64,000 nucleotides of DNA. Origin: Planctomycetota bacterium (GTDB lineage: Bacteria; Planctomycetota; PLA2). The translations under genes were made by a program, and so were the position numbers. Below are positions 4,066-51,135 of the stretch, piece by piece. Below the pieces are notes generated by a model. It saw only the letters and a program-made list of their open reading frames with translations, was not told the DNA's origin and searched no databases. Location: contig JAJFFF010000043.1 in assembly GCA_021776785.1 (NCBI GenBank), positions 4,196 through 68,195 of the forward strand, read 5' to 3'. Position 1 is the first letter of the stretch, and every line of letters begins with the position of its first letter.

Positions 4066-7000
4066 TCACTTCACTTCGATTTCGCGAATGAGCGGCCATT
4101 TCTGCGGATCGATTTCATGAGTATCGATGCGGACCAGCCGCGCGGACCCCAGCGGCGCCGGGTCGATTGCAGCGATCCCGTTTTTTGGTTTGCCAAACCC
4201 GACGATGACGGTGCCGTCGTCGCGGGTCTGGATGAGCGCTACCGATTCTTGGGCCTCGACTTGTGCGCGGCCCAGCGCGAGCGTGAACCGAATCGGTTGT
4301 TCGGGGCGCGTGACTTCGATATCGCGCCAGACCACAAGTTGACCGCGCTCTGCGCGCAAGAGGACGCGCCACTTCCCGGCATGGGGCGCGCGCAGACGAA
4401 ACACGCCGCTTTCGCCGAGCAACGCTTCGCTTCGCTGCGAACCCTGTACTTGAAAACGCGGTGGCATGAGCAGCGCGTTCCAGCCTTTCGCGTTGCCTCC
4501 GGTAATCGTCACCAGACCCTCGACACTCGGTGCGCGAGCATCGGCGACAAGCAGATCATGCTTCGTCGTGGATCCGGCGCGTACGGTGCATGTGTGGGGA
4601 ATCGGTTCGGCGCCTAAGCGCGAGCGTACGCGTTGGGCTCGCGGGTGAATCTCTTTGTCGGTCCGTGTCACAAGCCACGGGCCGGGCGTGAGCGCGTCAA
4701 AGCGAAATGCACCGTTGGCGTCGCTGCGCTGGGTTTGCGCGAATCCGTCCGCGCGCGAGATCGCGACGATGACCCCTGGAGCGGCTTTTCCGTCTTCGGT
4801 GCGCACGCGCCCCGCGATCGACCCGCCGCGTGTGATTTGCAGCGGCACGTCGTCGCCGACCGTTGCGTCGAACGCGCGTATGTCGGAACTCGCCGGAGCC
4901 AGTCCATCGGCTTCCGCGCGTACGACGAACCGTCCCTGGCCGCGCAGGGTGAGACGGTACGCTCCGTTCTTGTTGGTGCGCGTTTGGGCTGTCGGGCTTC
5001 GTTGGGATCGCACCGGGAATCTGTTCACCGTGACTATGCGGTCGGTCGGCGTCGCCTTGTGAAGCGTAACGCGCGCGTCGGCGACCGGTTTCCCGTTCGC
5101 CGTGACCGTACCGCGTATGCCTGGAAGTTCTTGAAGTTGCGCTTGCGCGTCGGCAGGGGCGGTTTCGGACGCGTAAGGACCGAGTGTTGCCAGCGCATGG
5201 TGATCCGCGTCGACGATGACCATGAACGCTCCCGCGGGCAACGGGACCTTGGCAGCGCCGTCAGCGCCGGCCTCGACATCGTCGATCGGGAGATCGAACT
5301 CGGCGTCGGGGCGCCGCATACGTACGCGGAACGTGCTCACCGCGGCGCCCTTCGTACCGGTCGCGCGAACGGTCATGTACCGAATTTTGGAAAGGCGAAG
5401 CGTGATCGTCGCTCCCGTTGCGCGGACATCAGTCCGGCGCGCCGCACCCCAGCGGCCCTCGGGATCGCGCACCTCGATGATGTAGACCGCGCCTTCCTCG
5501 GCCTCGATCTGAAACGTCCCATCGTCTTCGACGGTGGTTCCTCCGCCGCCTTCTGTGTTGTCGCCGACAAATTCGTAGGACAACTCGACGCCGCTCGCAG
5601 GTTTGCCTTCCGGGGTCAGAGCAACGCCTTGAATCGTCGCGTTCGCCGGTTTGGCTTCGAGCCTAACGATCACCCCGGCGGTCTCGCGGCCCGCGTGAAT
5701 TTCGGCCGGTGCATGCGTGCCGTTCCAGTAGTCGGCGGCTTCTACCCAGACGCGCTGCGAACCGATCGGGATTCCGGTGATCCGGAAGCGGCCATCGGCG
5801 TCCGTTGCGGTAAACGGTTGGGCCGCCACAGCCGCAAGCGGGGCATGGCGCAGGTGGTTGATATCGGCGTCGGTAAACGGGCGTTGGCTCCATCCGACCT
5901 GCGCGTGCGCAACGGGCTTACCTTCTTGATCGACGACGCGACCGACGAGCGAGCCGCCCGGTTCGAGAGCAATGTCGCCCAGGGCGGTTCGGGAGTCGCG
6001 CTTCGCCTGCGTGCGCATGGTGCGTGTGGCATACCCGTCGGCGCGAAACGAAAGATCGAGGACGGTCATGTTGTCTTTGATCTTGAGTGCGGCAACGAGC
6101 CGACCGTCAGCGCCGGCCCTCAACTCGATGATTTCGCCCGCATGGCGGATGTGGACGTCGCATCCGCTCACCGCGTTCTTGTTGGTGTCGACGACGCGAA
6201 AAGAAACGGACGAGGTCGGCGCGGCGATCGGGTTCGCGCCCGGCGCGGCCGGTGTGGAGCGCCGCGCTCGCGACGGCTCGATGCTCTCGCCGTCCTTCGA
6301 TTTAGGCACGGCATGTTTTGCGTCCGTGTCATTCGATCTTGCGTCCGCGGCGCGGGTGCGACGCGTCTCCGTGCGCGTCGGCGTGTCACTCCACGGCGCG
6401 CGGTCCGATACGTGCCATCCGAGCACGAGAAGCGCGACCACCGCGCCTCCTACGAGAAATTTTGTAGTTGTCGACAAGGCCACGGCTCCTCCAAGAGAGA
6501 GTGTTGTTCCCATGGCATCGAGGGTCGGTACGGTGAGGGCCGCGAGCGCGTTGTGCCAGCGCTTGCGATCGCCGGCGTGGCGGGCGTCCAGCGCTTGACG
6601 GAGAAGCGTCAGTCCACGTTGGATTCGCCAACGCACGGTTCCCGGCGGCGTACTTTGTTTCCGCGCGATGTCCGCAGCAGTCCAATCGCGGTAGTAGCGA
6701 AGGAGCAACGTGGTGCGGAACGGCTCTTCCAAGTTCATCACCAGCTCGGTGAGCATTTGGTGCGACTCGAGTTCGGCGAGGATCCTGTCCGGCGTGTCGG
6801 CTTGCCGATCCGGTTGGGCGACGGCGTGTTCGCGTCGACTCCGGCGGCGATTGGTTCGCGCGCGCATGCGCGCCTTGTTGCCGAGCACACGCGCAAGCCA
6901 CGGTCGCAGCGGACGGTCGGCGCGCGGGGGCTTTTCCAGGGCGGCGAGCCACGTTTCCTGTACGACGTCATCGGCCTCGGCGCGATCCCGAACCAGTCGG

Positions 7001-7077
7001 CGCGCGAGCGCGCGTGCCCATGAAGCGTGCTTGAGCAGCTCCTCGGGTCCGATCAGGGGTTCGTCGCCTCGATGCAT
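4066..7077 (-). CDS. ECF (sigma-70 group 4) sigma factor fused through a single TM helix to a large extracytoplasmic domain built of carboxypeptidase-regulatory-like beta-sandwich repeats
   Basis: Start reassigned to the ATG at 7077 (MHRGDEPLIGPEELLKHASWARALA). The ORF-track start at 7824 would overlap the epimerase gene on the other strand and its first 249 codons are R-rich noise. Sigma r2 (DDVVQETWLAALEK) and r4 (LLLRYYRDWTAADIARKQSTPPGTVRWRIQRGL) motifs, then a hydrophobic segment FLVGGAVVALLVLGW, then about 750 aa with repeated DADGRFRITGIPIG / NGAYRLTLRGQGRF / NGAFRFDALTPGPW motifs. Confidence 0.8.
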   Translation of the reverse strand: MHRGDEPLIGPEELLKHASWARALARRLVRDRAEADDVVQETWLAALEKPPRADRPLRPWLARVLGNKARMRARTNRRRSRREHAVAQPDRQADTPDRILAELESHQMLTELVMNLEEPFRTTLLLRYYRDWTAADIARKQSTPPGTVRWRIQRGLTLLRQALDARHAGDRKRWHNALAALTVPTLDAMGTTLSLGGAVALSTTTKFLVGGAVVALLVLGWHVSDRAPWSDTPTRTETRRTRAADARSNDTDAKHAVPKSKDGESIEPSRARRSTPAAPGANPIAAPTSSVSFRVVDTNKNAVSGCDVHIRHAGEIIELRAGADGRLVAALKIKDNMTVLDLSFRADGYATRTMRTQAKRDSRTALGDIALEPGGSLVGRVVDQEGKPVAHAQVGWSQRPFTDADINHLRHAPLAAVAAQPFTATDADGRFRITGIPIGSQRVWVEAADYWNGTHAPAEIHAGRETAGVIVRLEAKPANATIQGVALTPEGKPASGVELSYEFVGDNTEGGGGTTVEDDGTFQIEAEEGAVYIIEVRDPEGRWGAARRTDVRATGATITLRLSKIRYMTVRATGTKGAAVSTFRVRMRRPDAEFDLPIDDVEAGADGAAKVPLPAGAFMVIVDADHHALATLGPYASETAPADAQAQLQELPGIRGTVTANGKPVADARVTLHKATPTDRIVTVNRFPVRSQRSPTAQTRTNKNGAYRLTLRGQGRFVVRAEADGLAPASSDIRAFDATVGDDVPLQITRGGSIAGRVRTEDGKAAPGVIVAISRADGFAQTQRSDANGAFRFDALTPGPWLVTRTDKEIHPRAQRVRSRLGAEPIPHTCTVRAGSTTKHDLLVADARAPSVEGLVTITGGNAKGWNALLMPPRFQVQGSQRSEALLGESGVFRLRAPHAGKWRVLLRAERGQLVVWRDIEVTRPEQPIRFTLALGRAQVEAQESVALIQTRDDGTVIVGFGKPKNGIAAIDPAPLGSARLVRIDTHEIDPQKWPLIREIEVK

Positions 7078-7230
7078 AGAAGGTACTTGCCGCGCTTGGT
7101 CAGAGTGTTGGCGGTATTTTTTGATTCGTCGCCTGAAGCGTACGAGAACACCGTCCCGCGCGCTTAAATCCGGCCGCCAGGCGTCGAATGGGCCCTTCGC
7201 GGCATTCGTTTTTTCATCCCTCCCGGGGAT

Positions 7231-7668
7231 GTGAATAATGCGCCTGTGAAAAACATCAACCATGTGGGCGTCGCGGTCGCCGATCTTGAGGCCGCGCGCG
7301 CGATCTGGGACGAGCTGCTCGGGCAGACGCCCGACGTCGAGCATGTCGCCACGCAGCGCGTTTTTGCCGCGATGTATCCGTGCGGGATCGAGTTGATCGC
7401 GCCGGAAACTGACGACAGTCCGATTTCGAAGTTTTTGGCCAAGCGTGGGAGCGGCATCCACCACGTCACGATCGAAGTCGATGACATTGATGCGCAACTC
7501 GCGCGTTTGGCGAATCGCGATGTGCGCCTGATCAACAAGTCGGCCGTTCCCGGCGTTGGAGGCAGTCGCGTTGCGTTCCTTCACCCTGCCGCGGCCGGCG
7601 GCGTTTTGGTGGAACTCAAAGAGACCGCCAAGCAAGACAAGCACGGGGAGTCCGGCAGCGATGAATAA
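7231..7668 (+). CDS. mce: Methylmalonyl-CoA epimerase (glyoxalase/VOC family)
   Basis: 145 aa. VOC-fold motifs [14 protein letters not shown] and [14 protein letters not shown]. Its stop TAA overlaps the next gene's ATG (ATGAATAA at 7661-7668). Sits in the propionyl-CoA pathway cluster. Confidence 0.8.
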
Positions 7669-9190
7669 CCGAGAAGAGTTGCACCGTCGGCGCGAGGCTT
7701 CGCTGCTGGGCGGCGGGATGAAAGCGATTGAGAAACAGCACGCCAAGGGCAAGCTGACCGCGCGTGAGCGCATCGATTTGTTGCTCGACCCCGGGACGTT
7801 CATCGAGATCGATCCGTTCGTCACTCATCGCTGCACCGACTTCGGGATGGCTGCGAAAAAGATTCCCGGCGACGGCGTGATTACCGGGCACGGGCTTGTG
7901 GAAGGCCGCGCCCTCTTTGTGTTTTCGCAAGACTTCACCGTGTTCGGTGGATCGCTCAGCGGCGCGTATGCCCAAAAGATCTGCAAGATCATGGACCTGG
8001 CGATGAAGGCGGGCGTGCCCGTGGTTGGGTTGAACGACTCCGGTGGTGCGCGCATCCAGGAGGGCGTCGAGTCGCTTGGCGGGTACGCCGACATCTTTTT
8101 GCGCAACACACTGGCGTCCGGCGTCGTGCCGCAGATCTCCGCGATATTGGGGCCGTGCGCCGGGGGCGCCGTCTACTCGCCCGCGATTACGGACTTCGTT
8201 TGCATGGTCGAGAACACGAGCTACATGTTCGTTACCGGGCCCAACGTCGTCAAAACCGTCACGCACGAGGAAGTTTCGTTTGAGGACCTTGGTGGTGCGG
8301 CGACGCATGCCGGCAAGTCCGGCGTCGCGCATCTCACCGCTCCCGACGACGCCGCGTGCCTCGCGCAGGTCCGGCGGCTCCTTAGCTACATGCCGCTCAA
8401 CAACCGTGAGGATCCGCCGACGGTTGCCTGCGACGACGATCCCAACCGCATGGACGAGGCACTTGACACCATCGTCCCGGCCGATCCCGAAAAGCCTTAC
8501 GACATCAAAGACGTCGTCTCCCGTGTTGTGGACAAGGAGTCGTTTTTTGAAGTGATGCCCGAGTACGCCGGCAACATCGTGGTTGGCTTTGCTCGTCTCG
8601 GCGGGCGCGCGATCGGCGTGGTCGCAAACCAGCCCGCGTACCTTGCTGGCGTTCTCGACATCGACGCCAGCCTCAAGGGCGCGCGTTTCGTTCGCTTCTG
8701 CGACTGCTTCAACATTCCGCTCGTCACGTTTGAGGACGTTCCCGGTTTCTTGCCCGGCACGAATCAGGAGTGGGGCGGCATCATCAAACACGGCGCGAAA
8801 CTTCTCTACGCTTATTGCGAAGCCACCGTGCCGAAACTCACCGTCATCACGCGCAAAGCGTACGGCGGCGCCTACGACGTCATGAGCTCCAAGCACATTC
8901 GCGGCGACTTCAACTTTGCTTGGCCCAGCGCGGAGATCGCCGTTATGGGCGCCAAAGGCGCTGCCGAGATCATCTTCAAACGCGACATCCACTCGCCCGA
9001 AGACGAAGCGCGCTACACCGAAGAGTACAAACAGAAGTTCGCGAACCCGTTTATCGCTGCTGAGCTCGGCTACATCGACGACATCTTCGAGCCGAGGTTC
9101 ACCCGTCCGCGCCTCATCTCCGCCCTTTCGATCATGGCCACCAAAGTCGACCGAAACCCACCCAAAAAACACGGCAACATCCCCCTATAA
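7661..9190 (+). CDS. pccB: Propionyl-CoA carboxylase beta chain / methylmalonyl-CoA carboxyltransferase (acyl-CoA carboxylase CT subunit)
   Basis: Start taken at ATG 7661 ([19 protein letters not shown]). Classic carboxyltransferase motifs: [49 protein letters not shown]. The ORF-track start at 7556 would overlap mce. Confidence 0.9.
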
Positions 9191-35973: not shown

Positions 35974-36582
35974 CTAAAGGCCCATAGCTTCCAGCAGGCA
36001 TCGCGCCAACACGCTTTTGTCCACGGTGCCGAGGTCCGTGGTGGTTCCGTCGCGCGCGACGAGCAAGAACTCCGCGCCCTCCGCGCCGATCGCCGCGGGC
36101 GTGTTGAGTACGCACCAGTCCGCGTTCTTGCTTTCCAGTTTGCGGTGGGCGTGCTCGAGACCGTCGGTTGTCTCGAGTGCGAAAATCGCGAACGGTTTGT
36201 CGTGTCGTCGCGCGCCGACGTTGGCGGCAATGTCTGGGTTTTCGATGAGCTCGAGCGTCGTCATTTCACCGCGCTTAAGCTTGCGTACGCTCTGCGTCGC
36301 GGGGCGGTAGTCGCACACGGCGGCGGCGCAGATGATCGCATCGCAGCTCGGCAAAAACTCAAGGACGGCGTGAAGCATCTCGTCGGTTGTTTCGACGGCG
36401 TAAACATCAACGCTCGGCGGCGGCTGCACGGCGACCGGTCCGAGAACAAGTTGTACGTCGTGCCCGCGATCATAGGCCACTTCAGCAAGCGCTAAGCCCA
36501 TGCGCCCCGAGGAGCGATTCGAGATGAAGCGAACCGGATCGATGGGCTCGCGCGTCGGGCCCGCCGTGATCAGGACCCTCAC
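35974..36582 (-). CDS. coaB: Phosphopantothenate--cysteine ligase (CoaB domain as a separate ORF)
   Basis: GTG start overlapping the coaC TGA (ctGTGA at 36579-36584). The translation begins [30 protein letters not shown], the canonical CoaB N-terminus. About 202 aa. Confidence 0.65.
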
Positions 36583-37112
36583 AGCGCGTTTCGAATGGCG
36601 GCCAAGATTGTGTCCGTGGCGGCGAGGCGACCTTTGCCGTAGTCGCCGCACGCCAAGAACCCATCGTCGGGTTCGATCACCGTAACTCCGCGCGCGCGGA
36701 GGGTGGCCACGTTCTCGCGCACGGTCACGTGATCGTACATGCGTGTGTTCATCGCGGGCGCGACCATCACGGGGCACGTCACCGAAATGTACGTCGTCGA
36801 CACGATGTCGTCGGCGAGTCCGTGCGCCATCTTCGCCAGGATGTTGGCCGTCGCCGGTGCCACGACGAAGAGGTCGGCCACGTCGCCGAGCGCGAGGTGC
36901 TCGGGGCGGTCCGCAAAATCGCCGACGTTCGCGTCGGTGATGACGGGGCGCCCTGACAGCGTCGAGAACGTGAGCTCGCCGATGAAACGCTTGGCGTACG
37001 CGCTCATCACGACGCGCACGTCGATACCCTCCTTGCGCAAGGCCGATGTGACATCGGCCGCGCGAAACGCAGCGATCGAACCGGTAACACCTAACACGAC
37101 GGTTTTGCTCAC
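36579..37112 (-). CDS. coaC: Phosphopantothenoylcysteine decarboxylase (flavoprotein, CoaC domain as a separate ORF)
   Basis: [21 protein letters not shown] flavodoxin-like N-terminus, PAMN motif ([14 protein letters not shown]). 177 aa, ending 4 nt inside the coaB start. Confidence 0.8.
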
Positions 37113-37177: not shown

Positions 37178-37975
37178 ATGGTTCAAAAGCCCGGCGGCGG
37201 TTACATCGACGATCTGCCCGAGACCGCAGAGGGAAGCGGGTACTACGAACTCGACGCCACGCGCGACGAGTACTTGGCGTTTCACTATCCGGACGGTGAT
37301 CCGTTGGCATCGCTGCTCGGTGAGCGCACGCCGCCGCTGGAGGACCGCTACCCGTTCGGTGTGCGCAAGTTGTGGCACGCGCGGCCCGAGGGCGATGCGC
37401 TCGATGTCGGTGGGGCCGTCGGGCGCGTGACGTTTGACTTGGCGCGGGACCATCGCCACGCGTATGGATTCGACTTCTCCAAGACGTTGGTCCGTGGTGC
37501 GTACGACGTGGCCCGCCATGGCCGCGCCGTCTACACGACCGTCATCGAAGGTGATCTGCGCGCGCGTCACGATGTCGCCGTCGCGACACCGCCGAATGTG
37601 TCGTTCGTCGTCGCCAACGCCTTGGCGATTCCGTTTCCCGAGGCGCACTTTGCCACCGTTGTCGCGCTAAACTTGGTCGATCGGGTTCCGGACCCGCTTC
37701 GGTTGCTCGCGGAACTCACCCGCGTCACAGCGCCCGGCGGCACCCTTCTCGTGGGGTCGCCGTTTACGTGGTTGGCCACATTTACCCCGCGCGCGAAGTG
37801 GTTGGGCGGCCGCGAGGAAGAGGGGCAGCCGATGCGCGGCGCCGCGACGTTACGCGCGGAGCTGGCGGCTGCGTTCGAGTTTAAAAGTGAGTGTCGCGTG
37901 CCGTTTTACATCCCGCACCACGACCGGTCGGGACAGTTCGGCGTGTCGCACGTGCAACACTTCGTTCGTCGCTAG
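37178..37975 (+). CDS. Class I SAM-dependent methyltransferase
   Basis: Glycine-rich SAM-binding motif I (ALDVGGAVGRVTFDLA) and an acidic residue after beta-2 (AYGFDFS). 265 aa. Confidence 0.6.
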   Translation: MVQKPGGGYIDDLPETAEGSGYYELDATRDEYLAFHYPDGDPLASLLGERTPPLEDRYPFGVRKLWHARPEGDALDVGGAVGRVTFDLARDHRHAYGFDFSKTLVRGAYDVARHGRAVYTTVIEGDLRARHDVAVATPPNVSFVVANALAIPFPEAHFATVVALNLVDRVPDPLRLLAELTRVTAPGGTLLVGSPFTWLATFTPRAKWLGGREEEGQPMRGAATLRAELAAAFEFKSECRVPFYIPHHDRSGQFGVSHVQHFVRR

Positions 37976-39093
37976 CGCGGGCCGGGCGTCGGCATCTCGA
38001 CGGAAACTTCTCGCGTTTGCCCGACGACGATCAACGAGGACTGTCCCCATTCCCGTGGGGCCCGTTCGCCTGTGTAGTGACACCGCATGCGCCACACGGC
38101 GACGCCGGGAGGGAGCGTCGTTTGGACCGTCGTGTTGGCGGCGGGCGGTGCCCTGCGGATGGCGCGCCACGTCCCATCCCGGAGTTGCACTTCCAACCGA
38201 AACAGACGGATGTTTACCTCGGTTTTTTTCTTCGGAAACCGGAACAAGAGCTCGCCGGCGGGTTCCATCTCGATGACGACGTCGGTCGTCGCGCCGGATG
38301 CAACGACGACGGTCTGCTCTCCATACCAACCGGGGCGCGAAACCGTCATCGGTATCGTCAGTCCGGCGGCGACGTCGTGGATCGTGAACTCATAGCTGTC
38401 GGCGCGACGGAGCTCATGCGAGCTCCCGACGAAGGCCCGTTTTCCACCCGACTGAAAGGAGCCGCGAACCGAGTTCGGCAACCGAAGCAGCAGTGTGCCG
38501 GGGCGATTCATGGGCGCATGGGCTGCAAAACGAACGCGCGCGTGAATCGCTCCGGACGGCGCAACGAACACGAGCAGAGGCCGGTCCGGTATGGCATTTC
38601 CATCGACGATGGTGGCGGAGTAGCCGCCGCCGACCGATCGGATCAAAAGCACATGGCGTGTCGGCGGGAGGTTTCGGATCTCCGCGCCGCCTTCGCGAAT
38701 CACGATCGTTGGCGATGGGTTCGAGCCGGTGGAGGCGGCGGACGTATCCCGGGCCGTGGACGACCCGTCATCGAGAGGCCACACGGAGACATCGTGCGGC
38801 CGGATCGGAAGGCGCGTGCGCAGATCCAGCGTCTCGACCTGGAGGGTCCGCTCCCTTTCTTGTTTCGGATCCTTGGCGTCGCCATGGGCGTCGTCTGCTG
38901 GCTGTGTTTCTTGCGTCCGCACCGCAGGACGCGCGTCACCACGGTCGCGTTCGTTTGGTTTAGATTCGTTGGGTTTTCGCGCCGCCGCCGCGCGTCGATC
39001 CACACGTTCCGAAAGGAGCGCTATCAAAAAAACGAGCGACATGACGAATCCAGCGATCGTCGCTTTGAGGCGCATGCGGCTCATCTTCTTCAC
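37972..39093 (-). CDS. Hypothetical membrane-anchored protein
   Basis: N-terminal TM (ATIAGFVMSLVFLIALL), a charged linker, then a beta-rich domain. 373 aa. Overlaps the methyltransferase stop by 4 nt (convergent). Confidence 0.5.
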   Translation of the reverse strand: MKKMSRMRLKATIAGFVMSLVFLIALLSERVDRRAAAARKPNESKPNERDRGDARPAVRTQETQPADDAHGDAKDPKQERERTLQVETLDLRTRLPIRPHDVSVWPLDDGSSTARDTSAASTGSNPSPTIVIREGGAEIRNLPPTRHVLLIRSVGGGYSATIVDGNAIPDRPLLVFVAPSGAIHARVRFAAHAPMNRPGTLLLRLPNSVRGSFQSGGKRAFVGSSHELRRADSYEFTIHDVAAGLTIPMTVSRPGWYGEQTVVVASGATTDVVIEMEPAGELLFRFPKKKTEVNIRLFRLEVQLRDGTWRAIRRAPPAANTTVQTTLPPGVAVWRMRCHYTGERAPREWGQSSLIVVGQTREVSVEMPTPGPR

Positions 39094-39113: not shown

Positions 39114-39971
39114 CTATGGCGAAAACACCGAGTGGAACTCGAAGACGGCTTCCATCGAGATCATGAACACGGTGGTCGAGCTAAACACGACGATCCAGGT
39201 GGCCCACCGCGGGAGGCGCAATCGCCCGGCGACGGCTTGGGTTGCGAAAAACAACGTTTGGACGCCGAGGAGTTCTGGGACGGCGGTCCAGAACAGATAT
39301 TCGTGCAGCAAAGCGCTGTAGGTGAACCCGGCGATGAGACCGCGATTGGGGTGGCGCGCTCCGCCGATGGGTCGATAGATGTTGTCTTTGAGCCACAGGT
39401 GCACCATCAAATCGAACCGCGCCCAAAAATCGAGCACGCTGCGGGCGCGCAAAACGTGGCGGAAAAACCCATCGACTTTCCAGCCGCCGATTGCCATCAC
39501 GCCGACGATGAGATCGCTCGCTCCGCCGATGCAAAAAAAGATCTCCCACACTTTGAGGCAGTGGCTCAAAAACCACGCGCGGTGGTCGAGATCGAAGTGG
39601 GCGCCGAGATAGATCAACGCGAGACCGATCCCAAACCGCGGGGCGGCGCGCCACAGTTCGGGAACGACGGTCGGGCCGTCATGTCGTCGGAACGCGCGCG
39701 GCCACGTCAGCGTGTTGGGCCACACAAAAAAAAGCAGGTAACGACGAACCGTGAACGCGGGCCGCCGGCGCAAGAGATCCACGCTCTTGGCGCAGATCGT
39801 CGCGGCGAAGACGGCCAGTCCCCAGCGCGGCAACTTTGCGAGTTCGTCGAGCTGGAGTGGCGCCGCCAACGCGCATGCCCAGAGCGGAAGGCCGAACGCC
39901 CAGTGCGCGCGTCGGCGCACCAGAAAAAACGTCCCGGCGATCGGGACCAGGAGGAGCAGCGTGGCGATCAT
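39114..39971 (-). CDS. MBOAT-family membrane-bound O-acyltransferase (short form)
   Basis: Motif FWARFDLMVHLWLKDNIYRPIGG resembles the AlgI/DltB MBOAT signature (FWRRWHISL..WFRDYLYIPLGG) with the conserved His. Multiple TM helices. The start ATG overlaps the upstream gene's stop (ATGA at 39968-39971). Confidence 0.55.
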   Translation of the reverse strand: MIATLLLLVPIAGTFFLVRRRAHWAFGLPLWACALAAPLQLDELAKLPRWGLAVFAATICAKSVDLLRRRPAFTVRRYLLFFVWPNTLTWPRAFRRHDGPTVVPELWRAAPRFGIGLALIYLGAHFDLDHRAWFLSHCLKVWEIFFCIGGASDLIVGVMAIGGWKVDGFFRHVLRARSVLDFWARFDLMVHLWLKDNIYRPIGGARHPNRGLIAGFTYSALLHEYLFWTAVPELLGVQTLFFATQAVAGRLRLPRWATWIVVFSSTTVFMISMEAVFEFHSVFSP

Positions 39972-42900
39972 CGCGGCAACGACAATACATCCCCGGCGTC
40001 ATCGCCGTCGGCCGCGTACCCGCCCACGTGGTAGACGTGGTCGCGATAGTTCAAAACGTCGATGAGCGCGAGCGTCTGCACGGCGCGCAACGTGACGATC
40101 TGTTCGCTGATGCGTTCCGGGTGACGCATCAGGTCCGCAAGGACAGCCCGGCCCTCCGTCACGGCCTGTTCACCGCACTGATTCCAGTACCGCAAAGCGT
40201 CAGCCGCGCCTTCCACGTTGTGCGACGTCGCGCGCCACGCGGCGCGGCGGGCGTCGGCGTCGTCCACGCCATGCTGCTTCCAGTAGCGCCCGAACTGACG
40301 TCGCCGGCGCCAGCGCGGCCGCCACGAAAACGGTGCGAGTTCGCCCGCGGCCGCGCGGCCAAACACTTCGTCGAGGATTTCGCGTGCGCTGAGCAAGCTG
40401 CGCAGCCCGCGCATGTCGGCCACGTACGCGCACGCCGCCGCGCGCACGCGTTCGCGGTCGTAGCCGCTGTCCTTGAGGATGCGACTGAGGCGGGCCATGT
40501 CGCGCGCGATGCGCTGGCGCTCGGTTTCGAGCTCCCGCTCGAGCTCCGCATCGCCGCCCAGGAACCGGATGTCATCTTGGACGTCTGCGGTTTCGAGACC
40601 GCTTGTTTCGGTGCCCGGGAGGCGCACGCCGCAGTACTCAGGATCGAAGCGTGCACGCATCTTGGTCGCCAGAAGCGCGACGGGACCGCGCATCCGATGA
40701 ATCTTGCGGAGTGCGGTGTAGTAGTCCGCGCCTTCGACGGCATCGAGGTCCACATTGAAGCTCGGCCGACGGATCTCGCCCATGCACCGAATGAGCCACT
40801 TCACGAAACGCACGATGTAGAGCACCACCGCGCGCACGGCGTAGAGCGGAATGAACAGGGCGCGACCATGGGCGAGCCACCGCGAGTAGGCGCGGTACAG
40901 GTTGAGCACGCGTTCTTCGCGCGGGAGTTTATGTAACGGATACGTGCCGAACGTCCGGCGCAATAGATGTCGGCGGTCGCGCTGCATGCGGGCAAGCAAG
41001 TCCGCGCCGAAGCGCAGCCGAATCGTGGCGTCGCGCTGCTCGTCGTCGTCGAGGAAGTGAAGTGCTGTGAACTGGGTAGTGACGTAGACCGTCTGTTCGT
41101 TGGGAATCTCCGGCTCGCCCTCCGCGCGCACCCAGTGTTGGTATTTTTCCATCTCGTCGGGTGTGGAAGCGGCGTGTTGGGAGCGCGGCAGCGCGTTTCT
41201 GTTGTAGTCCACAACGAGGCGCGCCACGCCGTGGGCGATGGATTGACAACCCAGCGCAAACCAGAGGTACGGACCGCGGAGAAACGACTTCTGACGATCC
41301 AAGTCGAGTTTCATCAGCTCCTTGCGGTCTTTCTTTGTGAATCGGTTCGCCATCTTGCGCAGATTGCGGATCGCGAGGTTGCCGAGGAGCTGCGATGTCG
41401 TGCGCGTGTCCGACGAAACAAAAAGCGCGCCGTCGATGCCGTCGCGATACAGCAACACGGTCGTTTCCATCGGGCTAAAGACCCACTCCTTCGCGTCACC
41501 GGCCTGCGCCTCGATGAGCCAGTCCGTCACGCCTTGGACGAAACGTTCCTCGACGTCCTCTTCGATGTGCCCGTGCACGATGCGTTCCGGCCCAAGGACG
41601 CGCCCCTCCATAATGGCAGCGTCGCGCGCGAGGTGGCGTCCCTTGATGGCTTCGGTGAGCGATAGGAACTGTGCTTGCGCGGATTTCTCCAAGAACTCTG
41701 TCGCTTGTCCCGCGATGCGGCGCAGCCACCACCCGAATGCCAGCACAACAATGCAAATTCCGCCGAGGATCTCAATGAAGCTTGTCAGCGAATCGCCGAG
41801 CTTGTCTGCCCATGCCGCGTCGCCGATGAGAGTTCGCACGATGAAAATGAACAGCCCGAACAGGACCAGGCGATACGCCGGCCGGAACGAAGCCTTGATC
41901 ATCGTACGCCCGACGCGGTCCACGAACTGCGCCGGCGTGATGATGCCGTAGAGATCCGCGAACCAGAGCCAGCGTTGGTGCTGGCGCCTTAGTTCCGAAG
42001 CCGACGTTTGGGCGGCCGCGGCCACAACGTCGCCGTCCGTCATCTTCTTGTGCACCGACGGCACGTAGGAGCGCACAAACGGGAGCCAGCGCAGCATGGG
42101 CGACGCGAACAGGCGCACCGCGCGCGCGACACGCGTGACGAAGTCTGCCCCCATCTCGGCTTCGATCTCTTCCGGCGTCACCTTGGACAAGAGATCGAGC
42201 GCCTCTTCGGCGGAGCGATCCCGCGCGATACCGGATTCGGCCGGACGCTGCGTGTGGCGGAGCGGTTTTGTGTCCTTAGAAACTGCCGTCGCCAGGCGTT
42301 GCACGCGCAGCTGCGCAATCGACTCGCGCGTCTCGTCGGGCGCGGACAGGATCAACCGGCGCCAGCGGCGATTGAGGCGCGCTTGGATGCGGTGGACCTG
42401 GACCCCTAACCCCTCGTGGCGCTGGGCCATTTGGTTGCGCTCGGCGCGCGTCGGGTACAGCACGATGTTGCGGTTGAGCACTTCGCCGTACTTGCGGACG
42501 AGGCGGTCGATGCCGCGGCTCAAGAAGCCGAACGCGCGCGCGAAGCGGGCGATGCGCAGCAACCGGACGGCGCGGACGATGCGAATCTTATCCGCGCGCC
42601 GTGCGGCGACGCCGCCGCTTCCGACGGCTAGGTGGAAAAACAGCGCGAAGGGAATCGACGGCACAATGTCCACGAGAAGGTGCCGCCAAAACCACCGCCA
42701 TCGCCCGCGCACGAACACGAGCTTCACGACGATCTCAAAGAGAAAGAACGCGCAGGCGGCGGTGTCGAGGGCCACGAGCCACGTGGGGGGCGGGAGGGCA
42801 GCGCCGGTTTCGGGGTCTAGATCGTTAAGGAAAAACACCTCGACGGCGAGCAGTCCTAAGACGAGCACGATCAACCACAGGATGATCTGGTCGAACTTCG

Positions 42901-43672
42901 CGACGCGTTCGGCGCCGAACCGGAGTTCGAGCCGGTGTTGGAGGTCGCGCTCTTGGAGTTCGGCGGTAAGGCGGCGAATGCGGCGGCGCAAGCGCTTCCG
43001 GCGCCACGATTTATGGGCTTCGACAAACGTTGTGTGCCACGACACGTCGCGCATGACAAGGCGCAAGCGCGCGACGGCTTGGTCGGGATCGACGCCGTCC
43101 ACCGACGCGAGCACGGCGTCCGCGCGATCGAGCAGTTGCGTGGCCCAGTCGTCGCGCGTGTCTTCGCTCGGCGGGTGGGACTCGATCGCGGCGAGCATGG
43201 CGTTGCGCAATTCGGGGCGCACTTCGGCGAGCGGTGACGCGCCCCGCTGCCGCGCGAGAGCTTCGAGGTCGAACTCACGGGCGGACACGATGGCGCGAAA
43301 GCATGCGCGCGGGTCGTTGCGGTCGAGTGGCGCGAGCACTTGCGCGCGCCACGCGTCCGCGATGTCTTGGACGAGCTGATCGACGAGTTCCGTGGACGCT
43401 TGCGCGGCCTGGGGAAGCTTCATGTCGAGGGTTAGGTCGCGCCAACTCGCGAGGTCGGCGAGGATTGGATGGCCGCGGTCGTCGGACAGGTCCGTGCCGA
43501 GCGCGACGAGCGCTCCAATCGTCGCCGTGACATCCGCTTCCGCTGTCGCAAGGTGCTCCGCTTCCGCGAGCGGCTCGGGTTCGGTCGCGCCAAGATGGTC
43601 GTCGATGCGGCGTTCGAGTTCGCGGAAAAGCTCGTCCGCGGCGGAAGGGTCAGCCATCGCCGTCGCCGCCAC
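39968..43672 (-). CDS. Large (1234-aa) membrane protein containing a voltage-sensor-like S1-S4 module and a possible pore-like TM pair
   Basis: S1 (LWLIVLVLGLLAVEVFF), S2 (WLVALDTAACAFFLFEIVVKLVFV), S3 (HLLVDIVPSIPFALFFHLAV) and an S4-like segment with Arg at every third position (RIVRAVRLLRIARFARAFGFL). About 200 aa later a TM pair flanks RTLIGDAAWADKLGDSL. Long soluble N- and C-terminal regions. The M6 start (43657) is an alternative. Confidence 0.6.
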   Translation of the reverse strand: MAATAMADPSAADELFRELERRIDDHLGATEPEPLAEAEHLATAEADVTATIGALVALGTDLSDDRGHPILADLASWRDLTLDMKLPQAAQASTELVDQLVQDIADAWRAQVLAPLDRNDPRACFRAIVSAREFDLEALARQRGASPLAEVRPELRNAMLAAIESHPPSEDTRDDWATQLLDRADAVLASVDGVDPDQAVARLRLVMRDVSWHTTFVEAHKSWRRKRLRRRIRRLTAELQERDLQHRLELRFGAERVAKFDQIILWLIVLVLGLLAVEVFFLNDLDPETGAALPPPTWLVALDTAACAFFLFEIVVKLVFVRGRWRWFWRHLLVDIVPSIPFALFFHLAVGSGGVAARRADKIRIVRAVRLLRIARFARAFGFLSRGIDRLVRKYGEVLNRNIVLYPTRAERNQMAQRHEGLGVQVHRIQARLNRRWRRLILSAPDETRESIAQLRVQRLATAVSKDTKPLRHTQRPAESGIARDRSAEEALDLLSKVTPEEIEAEMGADFVTRVARAVRLFASPMLRWLPFVRSYVPSVHKKMTDGDVVAAAAQTSASELRRQHQRWLWFADLYGIITPAQFVDRVGRTMIKASFRPAYRLVLFGLFIFIVRTLIGDAAWADKLGDSLTSFIEILGGICIVVLAFGWWLRRIAGQATEFLEKSAQAQFLSLTEAIKGRHLARDAAIMEGRVLGPERIVHGHIEEDVEERFVQGVTDWLIEAQAGDAKEWVFSPMETTVLLYRDGIDGALFVSSDTRTTSQLLGNLAIRNLRKMANRFTKKDRKELMKLDLDRQKSFLRGPYLWFALGCQSIAHGVARLVVDYNRNALPRSQHAASTPDEMEKYQHWVRAEGEPEIPNEQTVYVTTQFTALHFLDDDEQRDATIRLRFGADLLARMQRDRRHLLRRTFGTYPLHKLPREERVLNLYRAYSRWLAHGRALFIPLYAVRAVVLYIVRFVKWLIRCMGEIRRPSFNVDLDAVEGADYYTALRKIHRMRGPVALLATKMRARFDPEYCGVRLPGTETSGLETADVQDDIRFLGGDAELERELETERQRIARDMARLSRILKDSGYDRERVRAAACAYVADMRGLRSLLSAREILDEVFGRAAAGELAPFSWRPRWRRRRQFGRYWKQHGVDDADARRAAWRATSHNVEGAADALRYWNQCGEQAVTEGRAVLADLMRHPERISEQIVTLRAVQTLALIDVLNYRDHVYHVGGYAADGDDAGDVLSLPR

Positions 43673-45350
43673 TCCCCTCCGCGTCGTCAGGCCGCGTTCC
43701 GATCACTACCGGCGGCGGCACATCGCGCCCCGTAAACTCGTCGACGATGGCGCGCGCCACTTGGCGTCCGCCGCGGTGCGCTGCCGGCATGGAGTCGTAC
43801 TCTTGGTGCTCCGGCATCTCGCTTTGCACAACATGCAGTGTCTGCGTCGGAAACGCGAACTCGATGCCGAGTTTGTTCGCCAGGCGCAAGATGTCGAGCA
43901 TCAGGCGCTGGCGCTCGCGCAGCTCTGTTGACCAGTCGCCGCAGTTGAAAAACAGATACATCAAGATGTTGAGCGACGACTCTCCAAAGCTATGGAAATA
44001 GACGTGGTAGTAGTCTTTGCGTGTGTACGGATGCAGCCGGATGAGCTCGCGAATGCCCTCCGTGAATGCCGCGACTTTTTGCGGCGGCGTGTCGTACGCG
44101 ATACCGAGTGACTCCTTGCAGCGGCGGTACTTGCGCGCCCCGAGGTTGTCGACCGATGTGCGAATGAGCATCGCGTTGGGAAACGTGATGAGTGAGTTGT
44201 AAAACGTGCGCACGCGCGTCGATCGGAAGCCGACTTCTTCGACCGCTCCTTCGATGCCGCCCGTCTTGATCCAGTCGCCCACCTGAAACGGTTGGTCCGT
44301 GAGAATGCCGACCGCTCCAAAAAAGTTCTCGACCGTGTCCTTGCTCGCCATCGCGATCGCCAAGCCACCGATGCCGAGGCCGGCCAGCAACGCGCTGATG
44401 TTCATGCCGAGGTTATCGGCGATCCACACGAGGCCGAGCACGACGATGAACACTTTGAGCGCGCGCCGCAACATCGGGACGAGCAAGTCGTCAACGCGGT
44501 TGTCCGACCGCTTCGCGAATCCGGCAAAAATATCGCTGGCCCAATCGACGATGCGCGAAAGCGACCAGATCACCGCGACCATCAAGACCAGCCGTGCCGC
44601 GAAGTTTAGGATCTCGTACGTCGTGTCGGACAGGTCGAGGAACGGAATGCCGGCGAGCCAAACCGCGGCCGTCGCGAAGAGCGCGAACGGGCGCCCTGAT
44701 TTTCGATTCGGATGGAACTCGACGTCGCGACGCTCCGCAATCTCGCGTTTCATCGAGCCGATGACAAGCCGCGCGATGAGGCCGGCCATCAGGCCGAGGA
44801 TCGTGATCAATAAGATCCCGAGCCACTGCCAGTTTTGCAAGACGAACGGTTTGGCGAGCATCCACGCGGGGAGGCGCGGCCGCAGCCAACTCGAAAAGCT
44901 GTTCGGCTCTGGCTCCACGCGTTGCTTGTCGCTCGAGACGGCCGCGAAGTAGTCGCTTACGTTTTCGCGCGTGCGCTTCGTAAACACCCAGCCGTTCTCG
45001 CTGAGAACGCACTCGAGCGTGCCTTGCTCTGTGGGGTGAAGATAGATCGCGCCGGTAAACGTCGCGTCCGGAACGTCGGATAGGTCGAGTCGCTTCGTGA
45101 GTCGATCGAGGTAGCCGACGAGATACGCGCCTGCCTTTTGGCCCGCTTGGTGGCGGCGCGCTTCGGGGAGGTCGCTGAGGTCGAAGAGACTCGCGAGTTG
45201 GTCCGGCGTGGCGCTGTGGCGGGCGTCCGCGACCGCCAGGGCCCTCTCGAACAGTGCGCGCGGGCCCTCGTTCGTGGATTGCGCGGCCAAAACGGCCGTC
45301 AGCAATGTGATCCCGATCCCAATCCGCCATGCGCCCAAGTTACGAAGCAT
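43650..45350 (-). CDS. MscS-family mechanosensitive ion channel with N-terminal periplasmic domain
   Basis: Signal/anchor segment, then TM helices and the MscS pore/beta-domain signature (IGGLAIAMASKDTVENFFGAVGILTDQPFQVGDWIKTGGIEGAVEEVGFRSTRVRTFYNSLITFPNAMLIRTSVDN). 566 aa. Confidence 0.85.
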   Translation of the reverse strand: MLRNLGAWRIGIGITLLTAVLAAQSTNEGPRALFERALAVADARHSATPDQLASLFDLSDLPEARRHQAGQKAGAYLVGYLDRLTKRLDLSDVPDATFTGAIYLHPTEQGTLECVLSENGWVFTKRTRENVSDYFAAVSSDKQRVEPEPNSFSSWLRPRLPAWMLAKPFVLQNWQWLGILLITILGLMAGLIARLVIGSMKREIAERRDVEFHPNRKSGRPFALFATAAVWLAGIPFLDLSDTTYEILNFAARLVLMVAVIWSLSRIVDWASDIFAGFAKRSDNRVDDLLVPMLRRALKVFIVVLGLVWIADNLGMNISALLAGLGIGGLAIAMASKDTVENFFGAVGILTDQPFQVGDWIKTGGIEGAVEEVGFRSTRVRTFYNSLITFPNAMLIRTSVDNLGARKYRRCKESLGIAYDTPPQKVAAFTEGIRELIRLHPYTRKDYYHVYFHSFGESSLNILMYLFFNCGDWSTELRERQRLMLDILRLANKLGIEFAFPTQTLHVVQSEMPEHQEYDSMPAAHRGGRQVARAIVDEFTGRDVPPPVVIGTRPDDAEGSGGDGDG

Positions 45351-48267: not shown

Positions 48268-51135
48268 GTGGAATCAGTTCAGCACCAGCTCCGTGACCTA
48301 GTCGCGCTTACCGATTTGCGCGAGCGGGTCCGGTTCGCCCAGGCACGAGTCCGCCAAGGCTTGGGGACCGCGTTGCTCGACGCCGCGCGCAAGCAGATGC
48401 GCGAAGATCCGACCGAGGCCGCCCAATTGGCCCTTTGCGCTCGAGTGGCGGTAACGCGTGAATCATCCGACGAACGAGTCGAAGCCCTTTCGCTCCTTGG
48501 TCAAGCCCAGACCCTCCGTGGGAAGTTTGCCGCCGCGGTCCGCGCCTACGAGCGCGCCATCGAGCGCGCCGTCGCGCAGCGTGACAAGACTCGGCTCCGA
48601 GCCCTGTCCTTGCACGCGCGGATTCACCTTGGTCGCGATGACGAGGTGCGCGCGATTGGCGCCGACTGCCTGACGGCCCTCGCCAAAGATCCCGACCCGA
48701 GGCTGATCGTGTTGACGCGTATGTCCTTGGCCGACCAAGCGTTTCGTCTCGACAATCCGCAGCGGGCGCTCGAGCACTACGCGGCGCTGGCGTCGATTGC
48801 GGCGCAGGCGTCGCCGCAACTGCGCGCCGTGATTGCGTGCAACCGCGCGAACGCGCTGGCGGCTTCTTACTTGTTCGAGGAAGCGGCGGCGAGTTTCGCC
48901 GAAGCGCGCGCGTTGCTGTCTGACGATCGGTTCCGCCACACGCGCGCCCAGGTACAGTCCAACACCGCGTACTTGGAGCTTTCGCAGGGTCAGTATGACG
49001 CGGCGCTGCGCCGCTACGACGACGCGAGCGCGTCGTTTGAGGAGCTCGGCGACGCGCGGCATCTCGCGCTGATCGACTTGGAGCGCGCCGAAGTGCATCT
49101 TCGGTTGAACATGCCGGCGGATGCGACACGACTCGCCGCCGCGGCATCCGCACGCTTTCGCCATCTGGGAATGAAAAAGGAGCATGCCCAGATCGAATTC
49201 GTGCGCGGGCAGGCCCTGCAAGCCCTAGGGGAGGGCCGGCAGGCGTCGGAGACTTTCCAGCTCGCGCAGGAGCTCTTTTTGGCGCTCAGCATGTACGGTC
49301 GCGTCGCGGCCTGCATGCTGCAGCGCGCGTTTCTTGCCTTGAAGCAGGGCGACGCAGATTCCGCCACCGAGCAAGTCGAGCAGGCGTCGATCCTGGTCGA
49401 GAACAGCGACGACGTTTTGTTGGCCGCGCGCGTCGAACTCATGCGCGCACGGCTCGCCGTAGAACGGGGGCTCGACTCCGACGCGACCGTTGCGCTGCAC
49501 GCCGCATCGAACGCGATTGAAGGCATTCACGCTCCGTGGCTCTCCATGGAAATCGATCGTTGGTTTGGGAAAACACGCCGCGCGCGCGGTGATACGCGCG
49601 GCGCGGTGGAGGCGTTTCGCCGCGCGATTGACACGCTGGAATCGTACCGAGGCGGAGTTCCGTCCGACGAGTACATGGCCAGCTTTCTTTCCGCGCGCGC
49701 CGACCTCTACACGGACTGCGTTGAGCTGCTCGTTTCGCTCGGCGAGATCGAGGCCGCCTACGAACTCACGGAACGCGGTAAATCGCGTGCCCTCGTGGAC
49801 TTGCTCGACGGCAAAGTCGGTCGGCCCGACGAACAGGCGCGCGACATGCTCGGCCGCGTCAATCGGTTGCGCGGCGACCTGCACGCGGTCTACAAGCGCC
49901 TCTTTGATCACGACTCCGGCCGTGAACAACGAAGCGCGCGCGCTGTGCGGGAAGCGCGTTCGATGGCCGTTCAAATCGAAGGTGAAATCCACACGTTGTT
50001 GCGCGACGCGCGCCGTGTCGACGCCGAAGCCGTGTCCCTCCAAGACGTGGTCGGTTTGTCCGTCGCCGACGTGCAAGCGACGTTGGACCCCGGTGTTGCG
50101 CTCATCGAGTACGTCACAACCGAGCGCGCGCTGGTCGCCTTCTTGCTCACGCGAGACGACCTGCACGTTGTCGTTTCTGACGTCGCCGAAGCGACCCTGC
50201 GCATGAACCTCGACCGCTTCCGTTTCCATCTCGCAAAATTCGACCGCGACACAAAAGATTCCGGGGACCTCGTCTTGGCGGCGACGCGCGCCAACCTCGC
50301 GCAGCTATCAGAACTGGTGATGGAACCGATGTCGGAGCTGCTCGACGGCGTCGACCGTCTCGTCGTCGTGCCGCACGGCGTGTTGCACGGCGCGCCGTTT
50401 CACGCGCTGCCCCTGGGCGAAGACGGATGGCTGAGCGATCGATTCGAGATCACCTACGCGCCGAGCGCGGCGGTGTATCGTTTCTGCCGCGAACGCGGAG
50501 AGGCGACGACAACCGGGGCCGCCGTGTTTGGCCTGCCGGACGAGTTGGCGCCGCTGATCGAACAGGAAGCGCGCGCGGTAGCGGCGCACTTGGGCACCGA
50601 AAACCTGCACTTGCGCGAAGACGCCACGTTGGAGGCGTTTTCTCGCAACTGTAAAGATGCACGGTTCATCCACATCGCGACGCACGGCATGTTTCGGCCG
50701 GAGCGACCGATGCTCAGCGCCATCCGGTTTGCGGACCGTTGGCTCAATCTCTACGACTTTTATGATTTCACGTTGGACGCCGAACTTGTCGTGCTGTCTA
50801 CGTGCGAGAGCGGGATTGCGGGCGTTACAGCCAGTGACGAAGTCTTCGGACTGACGCGCGGGCTTCTCTATGCCGGCGCCCGCGCGATGGTTACCAGTCA
50901 ATGGCGCGTCAACGACGCAGCGACGACGACCTTCATGGATTGCTTTTATGGCGCGTTGAGTGCGGGCACAAGCCCCGCGGCAGCGATGCAGCAAGCCATG
51001 CGCACCGTTCGAGAAACAAAACCGCACCCGTACTACTGGGCGCCGTTTTTTCTCACGGGTTGGACACAAATGACGCACTCGGGGCGGGGACGAAGGACCC
51101 GCACGAGTTCGACTCTAGTAGCTACGGGAACGTAA
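48268..51135 (+). CDS. TPR-repeat protein with C-terminal CHAT (caspase-like HetF-associated) peptidase domain
   Basis: About 600 aa of TPR-like helical repeats, then a CHAT domain with a caspase-type His/Cys dyad: FIHIATHGMF (His, near 50670) and LVVLSTCESG (Cys, near 50800), followed by LLYAGARAMVTSQWRVND. 955 aa. No signal peptide. Confidence 0.85.
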   Translation: MESVQHQLRDLVALTDLRERVRFAQARVRQGLGTALLDAARKQMREDPTEAAQLALCARVAVTRESSDERVEALSLLGQAQTLRGKFAAAVRAYERAIERAVAQRDKTRLRALSLHARIHLGRDDEVRAIGADCLTALAKDPDPRLIVLTRMSLADQAFRLDNPQRALEHYAALASIAAQASPQLRAVIACNRANALAASYLFEEAAASFAEARALLSDDRFRHTRAQVQSNTAYLELSQGQYDAALRRYDDASASFEELGDARHLALIDLERAEVHLRLNMPADATRLAAAASARFRHLGMKKEHAQIEFVRGQALQALGEGRQASETFQLAQELFLALSMYGRVAACMLQRAFLALKQGDADSATEQVEQASILVENSDDVLLAARVELMRARLAVERGLDSDATVALHAASNAIEGIHAPWLSMEIDRWFGKTRRARGDTRGAVEAFRRAIDTLESYRGGVPSDEYMASFLSARADLYTDCVELLVSLGEIEAAYELTERGKSRALVDLLDGKVGRPDEQARDMLGRVNRLRGDLHAVYKRLFDHDSGREQRSARAVREARSMAVQIEGEIHTLLRDARRVDAEAVSLQDVVGLSVADVQATLDPGVALIEYVTTERALVAFLLTRDDLHVVVSDVAEATLRMNLDRFRFHLAKFDRDTKDSGDLVLAATRANLAQLSELVMEPMSELLDGVDRLVVVPHGVLHGAPFHALPLGEDGWLSDRFEITYAPSAAVYRFCRERGEATTTGAAVFGLPDELAPLIEQEARAVAAHLGTENLHLREDATLEAFSRNCKDARFIHIATHGMFRPERPMLSAIRFADRWLNLYDFYDFTLDAELVVLSTCESGIAGVTASDEVFGLTRGLLYAGARAMVTSQWRVNDAATTTFMDCFYGALSAGTSPAAAMQQAMRTVRETKPHPYYWAPFFLTGWTQMTHSGRGRRTRTSSTLVATGT

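Follow-up and report, generated by a model that had tools for sequence, protein, structure and literature searches.

A Planctomycetal Membrane Protein with a Voltage-Sensor Domain, No P-Loop Pore and a Presumed Cytoplasmic Effector Module

The 64,000-nucleotide stretch of contig JAJFFF010000043.1 from a Planctomycetota bacterium that was analyzed here (the window) contains a long open reading frame (ORF) encoding a membrane protein with a voltage-sensor domain (VSD). This protein, referred to as the VSD protein, has no P-loop pore, and it is a stand-alone unit that is conserved across the Planctomycetota. Its S1-S4 segment is, on the evidence of sequence, a genuine VSD with a canonical charge-transfer centre. 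The interpretation that is tentatively preferred, with a confidence that stops a little short of even, is that the protein, which spans the inner membrane with six transmembrane (TM) helices, is a functional voltage sensor that drives a novel cytoplasmic module.

The S1-S4 segment and the region that follows it

The Pfam profile Ion_trans (PF00520) matched residues 260-384 of the VSD protein with a score of 31.3 bits, above the cut-off of 25, and the alignment covered positions 4-115 of the 241 positions in the profile, which represent the S1-S4 half alone. All 16 homologues that were scanned also matched Ion_trans, and Pfam detected no other family common to them. The profile of the VSD family, when compared with PDB sequences, aligned with S2-S4 of Kv4.2, hERG, Kv2.1, HCN1 and NavAb (best E value 4e-5) and with nothing outside the voltage sensor.

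Conservation was assessed in a set of 65 sequences, comprising the window protein and 64 full-length relatives from species-representative genomes. In S2, D303 was invariant (65/65), F310 was Phe in 55 sequences and Leu in 10, E313 was Glu in 45 and Asp in 20, and K317 was Lys in 44 and Arg in 20. In S3, D335 was retained as Asp in 57 members and replaced by Glu in six, while P341 was present in all 65. The S4 string of the window protein, RIVRAVRLLRIARFARAF at residues 364-381, has Arg at positions 364, 367, 370, 373, 376 and 379. The protein thus has both the S1-S4 helices with a basic S4 residue at every third position and the charge-transfer centre that define the voltage-gated channel superfamily. 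An earlier note on this DNA had recognized an S1-S4 module with Arg at every third position of S4, a reading borne out by the Ion_trans match above threshold, confined as it was to the S1-S4 half, and by the conservation of the S2 and S3 residues. A typical S4 of the family had 10-11 basic residues, with as many as eight [RK]xx repeats in succession; in the lineage of the window, which includes the database protein P0002 and the locus L087, the segment was five residues shorter (36 rather than 41 residues) and had six rather than 7-8 consecutive repeats. Most relatives had a Pro mid-way in their longer, HCN-like S4. AlphaFold2 modelled S1-S3 with a predicted local distance difference test (pLDDT) score of about 90 and S4 with scores of 70-83.

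The segment that follows S4 was near-invariant, with R379 and D389 present in all 65 sequences, R386 and R390 each in 64 and N400 in 60. In the AlphaFold2 model a single helix spanned residues 362-401, running from S4 into the post-S4 segment, and this predicted continuity makes the post-S4 helix a candidate coupling element.

The protein has no S5, re-entrant P-loop with a selectivity filter and S6 on a short linker. About 210 residues separated S4 from TM5, and hydropathy analysis located two hydrophobic helices, at residues 597-652, that flank RTLIGDAAWADK. Positions 116-241 of the Ion_trans profile, the S5-P-S6 half, were unmatched in the VSD protein. The AlphaFold2 model of the post-S4 region (850 residues, pLDDT 82, predicted template modelling score (pTM) 0.81) placed a 3-residue turn between helices 580-616 and 620-678, so that TM5 and TM6 formed a plain helical hairpin. 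The TM5-TM6 connector was unconserved and its length ranged from 20 to 66 amino acids across the family; TM5 was poorly conserved, TM6 kept G637, C640, G647 and W649, and the motif ADLYGxxTPxQFxDRxG was conserved just N-terminal to TM5. The earlier note had also reported that a contiguous S5-P-S6 pore is missing, and the 210-residue gap, the hairpin model and the unmatched half of the profile all agree with it. The faint likeness that it saw between RTLIGDAAWADK and the T-x-[ED]-x-W selectivity-filter loops did not survive, since the segment is not conserved, differs in length among relatives and lies, in the model, at the tip of an uninterrupted helical hairpin; RTLIGDAAWADK was therefore ruled out as a selectivity filter. 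A putative seventh TM helix at residues 933-960 was also ruled out: the segment is studded with Arg and Lys in all homologues and is for that reason more likely to be amphipathic or buried.

More than 140 species conserve the ORF over its whole length. A word-index homology search retrieved 19 relatives, which their sources label "ion transporter" or "hypothetical", and a second search of the same type that used the alignment retrieved the same 19 proteins. In species-representative genomes, a scan identified at least 141 loci that encode the protein, including one in the complete genome CP043547, and almost all were from Planctomycetota (Pirellulales, Gemmatales, Planctomycetales and Isosphaeraceae). 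Two loci of the family, L031 and L059, come from metagenome-assembled genomes labelled Verrucomicrobia and Ectothiorhodospiraceae, and may represent mis-binning or rare transfer outside the Planctomycetota. An exhaustive search with a profile of the post-S4 part alone identified, at E<=1e-3, 673 clusters (50% identity), of which 369 had E<=1e-30. The best 150 of the 673 clusters were either proteins of 1,200-1,650 amino acids whose post-S4 module started at residue 360-650 or beyond, or evident fragments; none of these 150 had the module in another architecture. Judged by its sequence, the family does not justify the "ion transporter" annotation.

The cytoplasmic modules and the proposed mechanism

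Outside the VSD, the protein comprises about 1,100 all-helical residues, which take the place of an ion pore. The N-terminal domain was modelled by AlphaFold2 as all-helical, with pLDDT values of about 85-95 over most of its length, and had three positions that were at least 92% conserved. The C-terminal 579 residues, also all-helical in the model with pLDDT values mostly of 80-95, contained 63 positions conserved at this level, of which 15 are Arg, 11 are Asp and one each is His and Lys; D755, H872, K990 and D1010 are examples of its invariant residues. The extension that leads from TM6 into this module, AGQATxFxExxAxAQ[FY]LxLTE, was highly conserved. The conservation of the C-terminal module is the basis for regarding it as the presumed effector.

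The soluble domains, which had been described as of no known fold, indeed had no detectable relative in Pfam, in PDB sequences or among PDB folds. Pfam gave no match outside the VSD in any of the 16 family members scanned, the post-S4 profile had no match among PDB sequences even at E<=10, and a Foldseek search of the PDB with the post-S4 model returned nothing below an E value of 0.2. The sequence FLDDDEQRD within the module resembles the DDxxD motif of terpene synthases, but this assignment was ruled out; D877 is the sole invariant residue of the motif and R880 is near-invariant.

These observations suggest a mechanism in which a change in membrane potential would move the Arg-rich S4, as the conserved gating charges and countercharges indicate. 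S4, which according to the model and the pattern of conservation runs as one helix into R379-F383-R386-G387-D389-R390, would be continuous with the post-S4 helix, and the latter would pass the movement to the 210-residue linker and to the 580-residue C-terminal module, which the TM5-TM6 hairpin would anchor to the membrane. The conformation of the whole assembly would be switched in this way, and with it a catalytic or binding activity that may reside in the region rich in invariant Arg and Asp residues. Such a mechanism would parallel that of the voltage-sensing phosphatases and of SLC9C1, in which a VSD acts on an effector other than a pore.

Three observations weigh against this mechanism. 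First, no activity was identified for the cytoplasmic module, whose role as an effector is deduced from its conservation alone. Second, TM6 has a conserved face of small residues (G637, C640, G647), which together with the long conserved cytoplasmic extension could equally form an oligomeric pore. Third, when the model of the multi-domain N-terminal 695 residues was compared with the PDB by Foldseek, the best channel match was Kv3.1 with an E value of 0.65 and a probability of 0.77, which is not significant. The structure prediction proposed in the earlier note gave no significant match to a VSD fold, and since this fold-level check is weak, the identification of the VSD depends on the sequence comparisons.

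The second observation leads to the best of the alternatives, a voltage-gated channel whose pore is non-canonical, in which oligomerized TM5-TM6 hairpins would line a P-loop-free pore that is gated by the VSD through the cytoplasmic module. The conservation of G637, C640, G647 and W649 in TM6, followed by that of the AGQATxFxExxAxAQ[FY]LxLTE extension, is in keeping with such a pore, the ADLYGxxTPxQFxDRxG motif before TM5 could serve as an S4-S5 linker, and the bacterial VSD proteins covered by a 2024 review (PMC13095418) are all channels. Several features speak against this explanation, which is held to be less probable than the preferred one but a serious rival to it: 1) a re-entrant loop and a conserved filter are both lacking, and the connector is unconserved, 20-66 residues long and helical in the model, 2) TM5 is poorly conserved, and neither TM5 nor TM6 has polar residues, and 3) S4 is approximately 210 residues away from TM5 and the S5-P-S6 half of Ion_trans is unmatched. 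In canonical channels the S4-S5 linker is short, about 15 residues.

A further alternative is that S1-S4 is a relic that does not sense voltage and serves only to anchor the protein in the membrane or to interact with lipids, with the helical domains acting as a scaffold. The all-helical, Arg-rich cytoplasmic domains are scaffold-like, and 11 of the 65 family members have an S4 of reduced charge, with 2-4 consecutive [RK]xx repeats. Purifying selection has nevertheless kept the ladder of gating charges and, in S2, the two acidic residues, the Phe and the Lys or Arg, together with the S3 Asp, in sequences down to about 28% identity. A passive anchor is hard to sustain when gating charges and countercharges are selectively preserved, and this explanation is considered improbable.

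Gene order around the VSD gene

The gene for the VSD protein lies between those for an MscS-like channel and a short MBOAT protein (Table 1), and the three belong to a longer co-directional string, tpiA-secG-yicC-gmk-MscS-VSD-MBOAT-ORF373. The stop codon of the VSD ORF overlaps the start of the MBOAT gene in the sequence ATGA. The overlap between the MscS stop and the VSD start is 23 nucleotides if the GTG is used and 8 nucleotides (ATGGCTGA) if translation begins at the ATG five codons 3' of it. The latter is probably the true start, because it is favoured by the N-termini of the homologues and by the public gene call P0001, a protein of 1229 residues that is 100% identical to the VSD protein of the window. 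Both overlapping junctions claimed in the earlier note were verified in the sequence. A frameshift that splits the VSD ORF, which the note had named as fatal to its proposal, is absent, and relatives that are 79% identical are equally full-length.

Table 1. Genes and protein segments of the VSD locus in the window
Feature	Window position	Strand	Extent and basis
MscS-like channel gene	43650..45350	(-)	566 amino acids; ORF and Pfam
VSD protein gene	39968..43672	(-)	1234 amino acids from GTG; 1229 amino acids from ATG at 43657
N-terminal cytoplasmic helical domain	42908..43672	(-)	Residues 1-255; ends in conserved pre-S1 helix QERxLQxxLExxFG
VSD, S1-S4	42521..42907	(-)	Residues 256-384; Ion_trans, PDB profile matches, family conservation
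S4	42530..42601	(-)	Residues 358-381, RRADKIRIVRAVRLLRIARFARAF; six Arg spaced by three, and also R358, R359 and K362
Post-S4 helix	42470..42538	(-)	Residues 379-401, RAFGFLSRGIDRLVRKYGEVLNR; near-invariant; continuous with S4 in AlphaFold2 model
Cytoplasmic helical region, S4 to TM5	41888..42520	(-)	Residues 385-595; AlphaFold2, conservation
TM5-TM6 helical hairpin	41708..41887	(-)	Residues 596-655; hydropathy, AlphaFold2
C-terminal cytoplasmic all-helical module	39971..41707	(-)	Residues 656-1234; most conserved part
Short MBOAT gene	39114..39971	(-)	285 amino acids; ORF and Pfam MBOAT
ORF373	37972..39093	(-)	373 amino acids; N-terminal membrane anchor; no family match

The identities that had been assigned to the two neighbours held up, with matches above the Pfam cut-offs in both. 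The 566-residue protein matched the three MscS families MS_channel_1st, MS_channel_2nd and MS_channel_3rd (PF21088, 39.7 bits; PF00924, 76.1 bits; PF21082, 27.6 bits). Its N-terminal signal and periplasmic portion is followed by several TM helices and by the MscS core, and it has the TM3 pore helix, beta-domain and C-terminal domain of the MscS family; its matches to NCBIfam MscS subfamilies were partial. The 285-residue protein scored 32.1 bits with MBOAT (PF03062), for which the cut-off is 27, over positions 192-289 of the 337 in the profile. It has the MBOAT core with the catalytic His region, aligning with the catalytic stretch of DGAT1 (residues 391-453) that includes the His of FHE/LHE, which is SALLHE in this protein; Pfam detected nothing of the N-terminal part of a typical MBOAT.

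Gene neighbourhoods were compared by tblastn searches with the neighbours in the window against approximately 80 loci from other species. In these searches the MBOAT gene adjoined a VSD gene only in L001, where the VSD protein is 78% identical, and in 79 species-level loci the VSD gene had no MBOAT gene beside it. The MscS gene was directly upstream of the VSD gene in a single subclade (the window, L001, L007, L008, L009 and L087), and eight loci had gmk, yicC, secG and tpiA upstream. The MscS-linked members grouped as one clade in a neighbour-joining tree, and in the sister of this clade gmk was next to the VSD gene without MscS, a pattern that fits a single insertion. L007 and L009, sister lineages that contain MscS, had no MBOAT gene downstream. 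When all the flanking ORFs were clustered de novo, no family occurred at more than 10 of about 80 loci, and the only synteny was at the level of clades, with housekeeping genes.

A homology search with the short MBOAT protein found four clusters only. Three lay directly downstream of VSD genes whose products are at least 70% identical to that of the window, among them L087 (MBOAT 75% and VSD 79% identical to those of the window) and L088 (63% and 70%, respectively); the fourth had an unrelated context. The order MscS-VSD-MBOAT was kept in L001 and L087, and VSD-MBOAT with a 4-nucleotide overlap in L088. A database protein that appears to fuse the VSD and MBOAT sequences (P0002, 1,523 amino acids, L001:4300-4800) was rejected as a frameshift artefact of a contig with 3x coverage. 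This contig has at least two frameshifts, and the true C-terminus of the VSD protein (...LNYRDHVYHVGGYAEDGDEAGATLSLP, followed by its stop codon) and the N-terminus of the MBOAT protein are encoded in other frames. In L087, from the same sample, the VSD and MBOAT proteins are encoded by two separate genes.

The earlier note had envisaged that the three proteins form one stoichiometric complex in which tension and voltage sensing control the acylation of a lipid or polymer. The overlaps are real at both junctions, the full gene order recurs in L001 and L087 and its VSD-MBOAT part in L088, and three of the four short-MBOAT clusters are beside a VSD gene, but synteny does not recur across the VSD family. 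The MBOAT-linked VSD proteins are all close relatives, at least 70% identical, and the linkage may for this reason reflect one insertion event; MBOAT is missing from the 79 species-level loci and from L007 and L009; adjacency to MscS is limited to one clade; the fusion is artefactual; and the genes sit within a longer co-directional string of housekeeping genes, so that adjacency alone says little. Species that lack both partners also imply a function of the VSD protein that is independent of them. A voltage- or tension-sensing module coupled to an acyltransferase is very improbable as a general mechanism. The MscS and MBOAT genes are recent, lineage-specific operon neighbours, which may be co-expressed with the VSD gene here, and not required parts.

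ORF373, the last member of the string, had no match in Pfam or PADLOC and is probably unrelated to the VSD protein. Its counterpart in L001 and L087 has 500 amino acids and weak matches to CarboxypepD_reg; ORF373 is absent in L088, where a methyltransferase gene is directly 3' of the MBOAT gene. The PADLOC defence models also gave no match for the MscS, VSD or MBOAT proteins. Elsewhere in the window, phosphopantothenoylcysteine decarboxylase (Flavoprotein, 36579..37112) and its synthetase partner (DFP) are encoded by separate overlapping genes (35974-37112, minus strand) rather than by a fused coaBC, an arrangement that was also found in the relatives L001, L002 and L088. A divergent gene beside the tpiA end of the string (48268-51135, plus strand) encodes a 955-residue protein whose N-terminal part has TPR repeats and whose C-terminal domain is of the CHAT (caspase-like) type. 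A 1,252-residue ORF (4066-7824, minus strand) combines regions 2 and 4 of an ECF sigma-70 factor (residues 265-410) with CarboxypepD_reg, DUF4198 and Ig-like repeats that follow them; its first 260 or so residues may be an over-extension of the ORF.

Comparison with known voltage-sensor proteins

The VSD proteins lacking a canonical pore that are covered by a 2024 review (PMC13095418), namely the voltage-sensing phosphatases (VSPs), Hv1, TMEM266 and SLC9C1, are all eukaryotic. A search of the full-text literature, of incomplete coverage, turned up no account of the present family or of any bacterial VSD protein without a pore. The protein described here could be the first bacterial case of a VSD acting on a cytoplasmic effector and not on a pore, the effector being an enzyme or a signalling module with an all-helical fold not seen before, and could act as a transducer from membrane potential to cytoplasm across the Planctomycetota, a proposal that is put forward with some reserve as rather less than an even prospect. 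If it is correct, electromechanical coupling to non-pore effectors exists in bacteria too, the module offers a new effector fold in which to study how S4 motion is transmitted, and there is a concrete handle on the way in which bacteria might sense their own membrane potential, an unsettled question of bacterial electrophysiology. Two annotations are corrected in any case, the "ion transporter" label of the family and the MBOAT-fusion protein in one metagenome.

In sequence there is a likeness to the voltage-gated channels (Kv, HCN, BacNav and MVP), with which the VSD protein shares a homologous S1-S4, the S2 pattern acidic-x6-Phe-x2-acidic-x3-basic, the S3 Asp followed by Pro and an Arg at every third position of S4. 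The long S4 of the family, with up to 8-11 basic residues, recalls the sensors of the HCN and MVP type. Unlike these channels, the VSD protein has no S4-S5 linker, S5, P-loop or S6; it has instead a linker of about 210 residues, a helical hairpin and cytoplasmic domains of 580 and about 255 residues, in a total of approximately 1,230-1,500 amino acids.

Hv1 is likewise a pore-less VSD protein, and conduction through the VSD itself is for this reason conceivable. However, the present protein does not have the features of an Hv1 proton channel. Its S1 (FDQIILWLIVLVLGLLAVEVFF) lacks the central Asp, with acidic residues at the ends only (D261 and E278), its S4 has neither the RxWRxxR motif nor any Trp, and with six TM helices and 1,234 amino acids it is larger by about 1,000 residues.

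SLC9C1 provides an example of a VSD in a protein without a P-loop, in which a long S4 helix contacts cytoplasmic helical domains, and TMEM266 (HVRP1) is another VSD protein without a P-loop pore. The VSD protein differs in lacking an NhaA-fold transporter domain, a CNBD and an Hv1-like coiled coil, and its family is found almost only in Planctomycetota, whereas theirs are eukaryotic.

In the VSPs (Ci-VSP/TPTE) the effector is a PTEN-like phosphatase with a C2 domain, whereas that of the VSD protein is all-helical with no detectable relative, and Pfam found no phosphatase or C2 match in the 16 family members. The VSD protein is also bacterial and has two additional TM helices. The two nevertheless share the same logic, a single VSD with an S4 that continues into a conserved basic linker controlling, or in the present case presumably controlling, a cytoplasmic effector that is not a pore.

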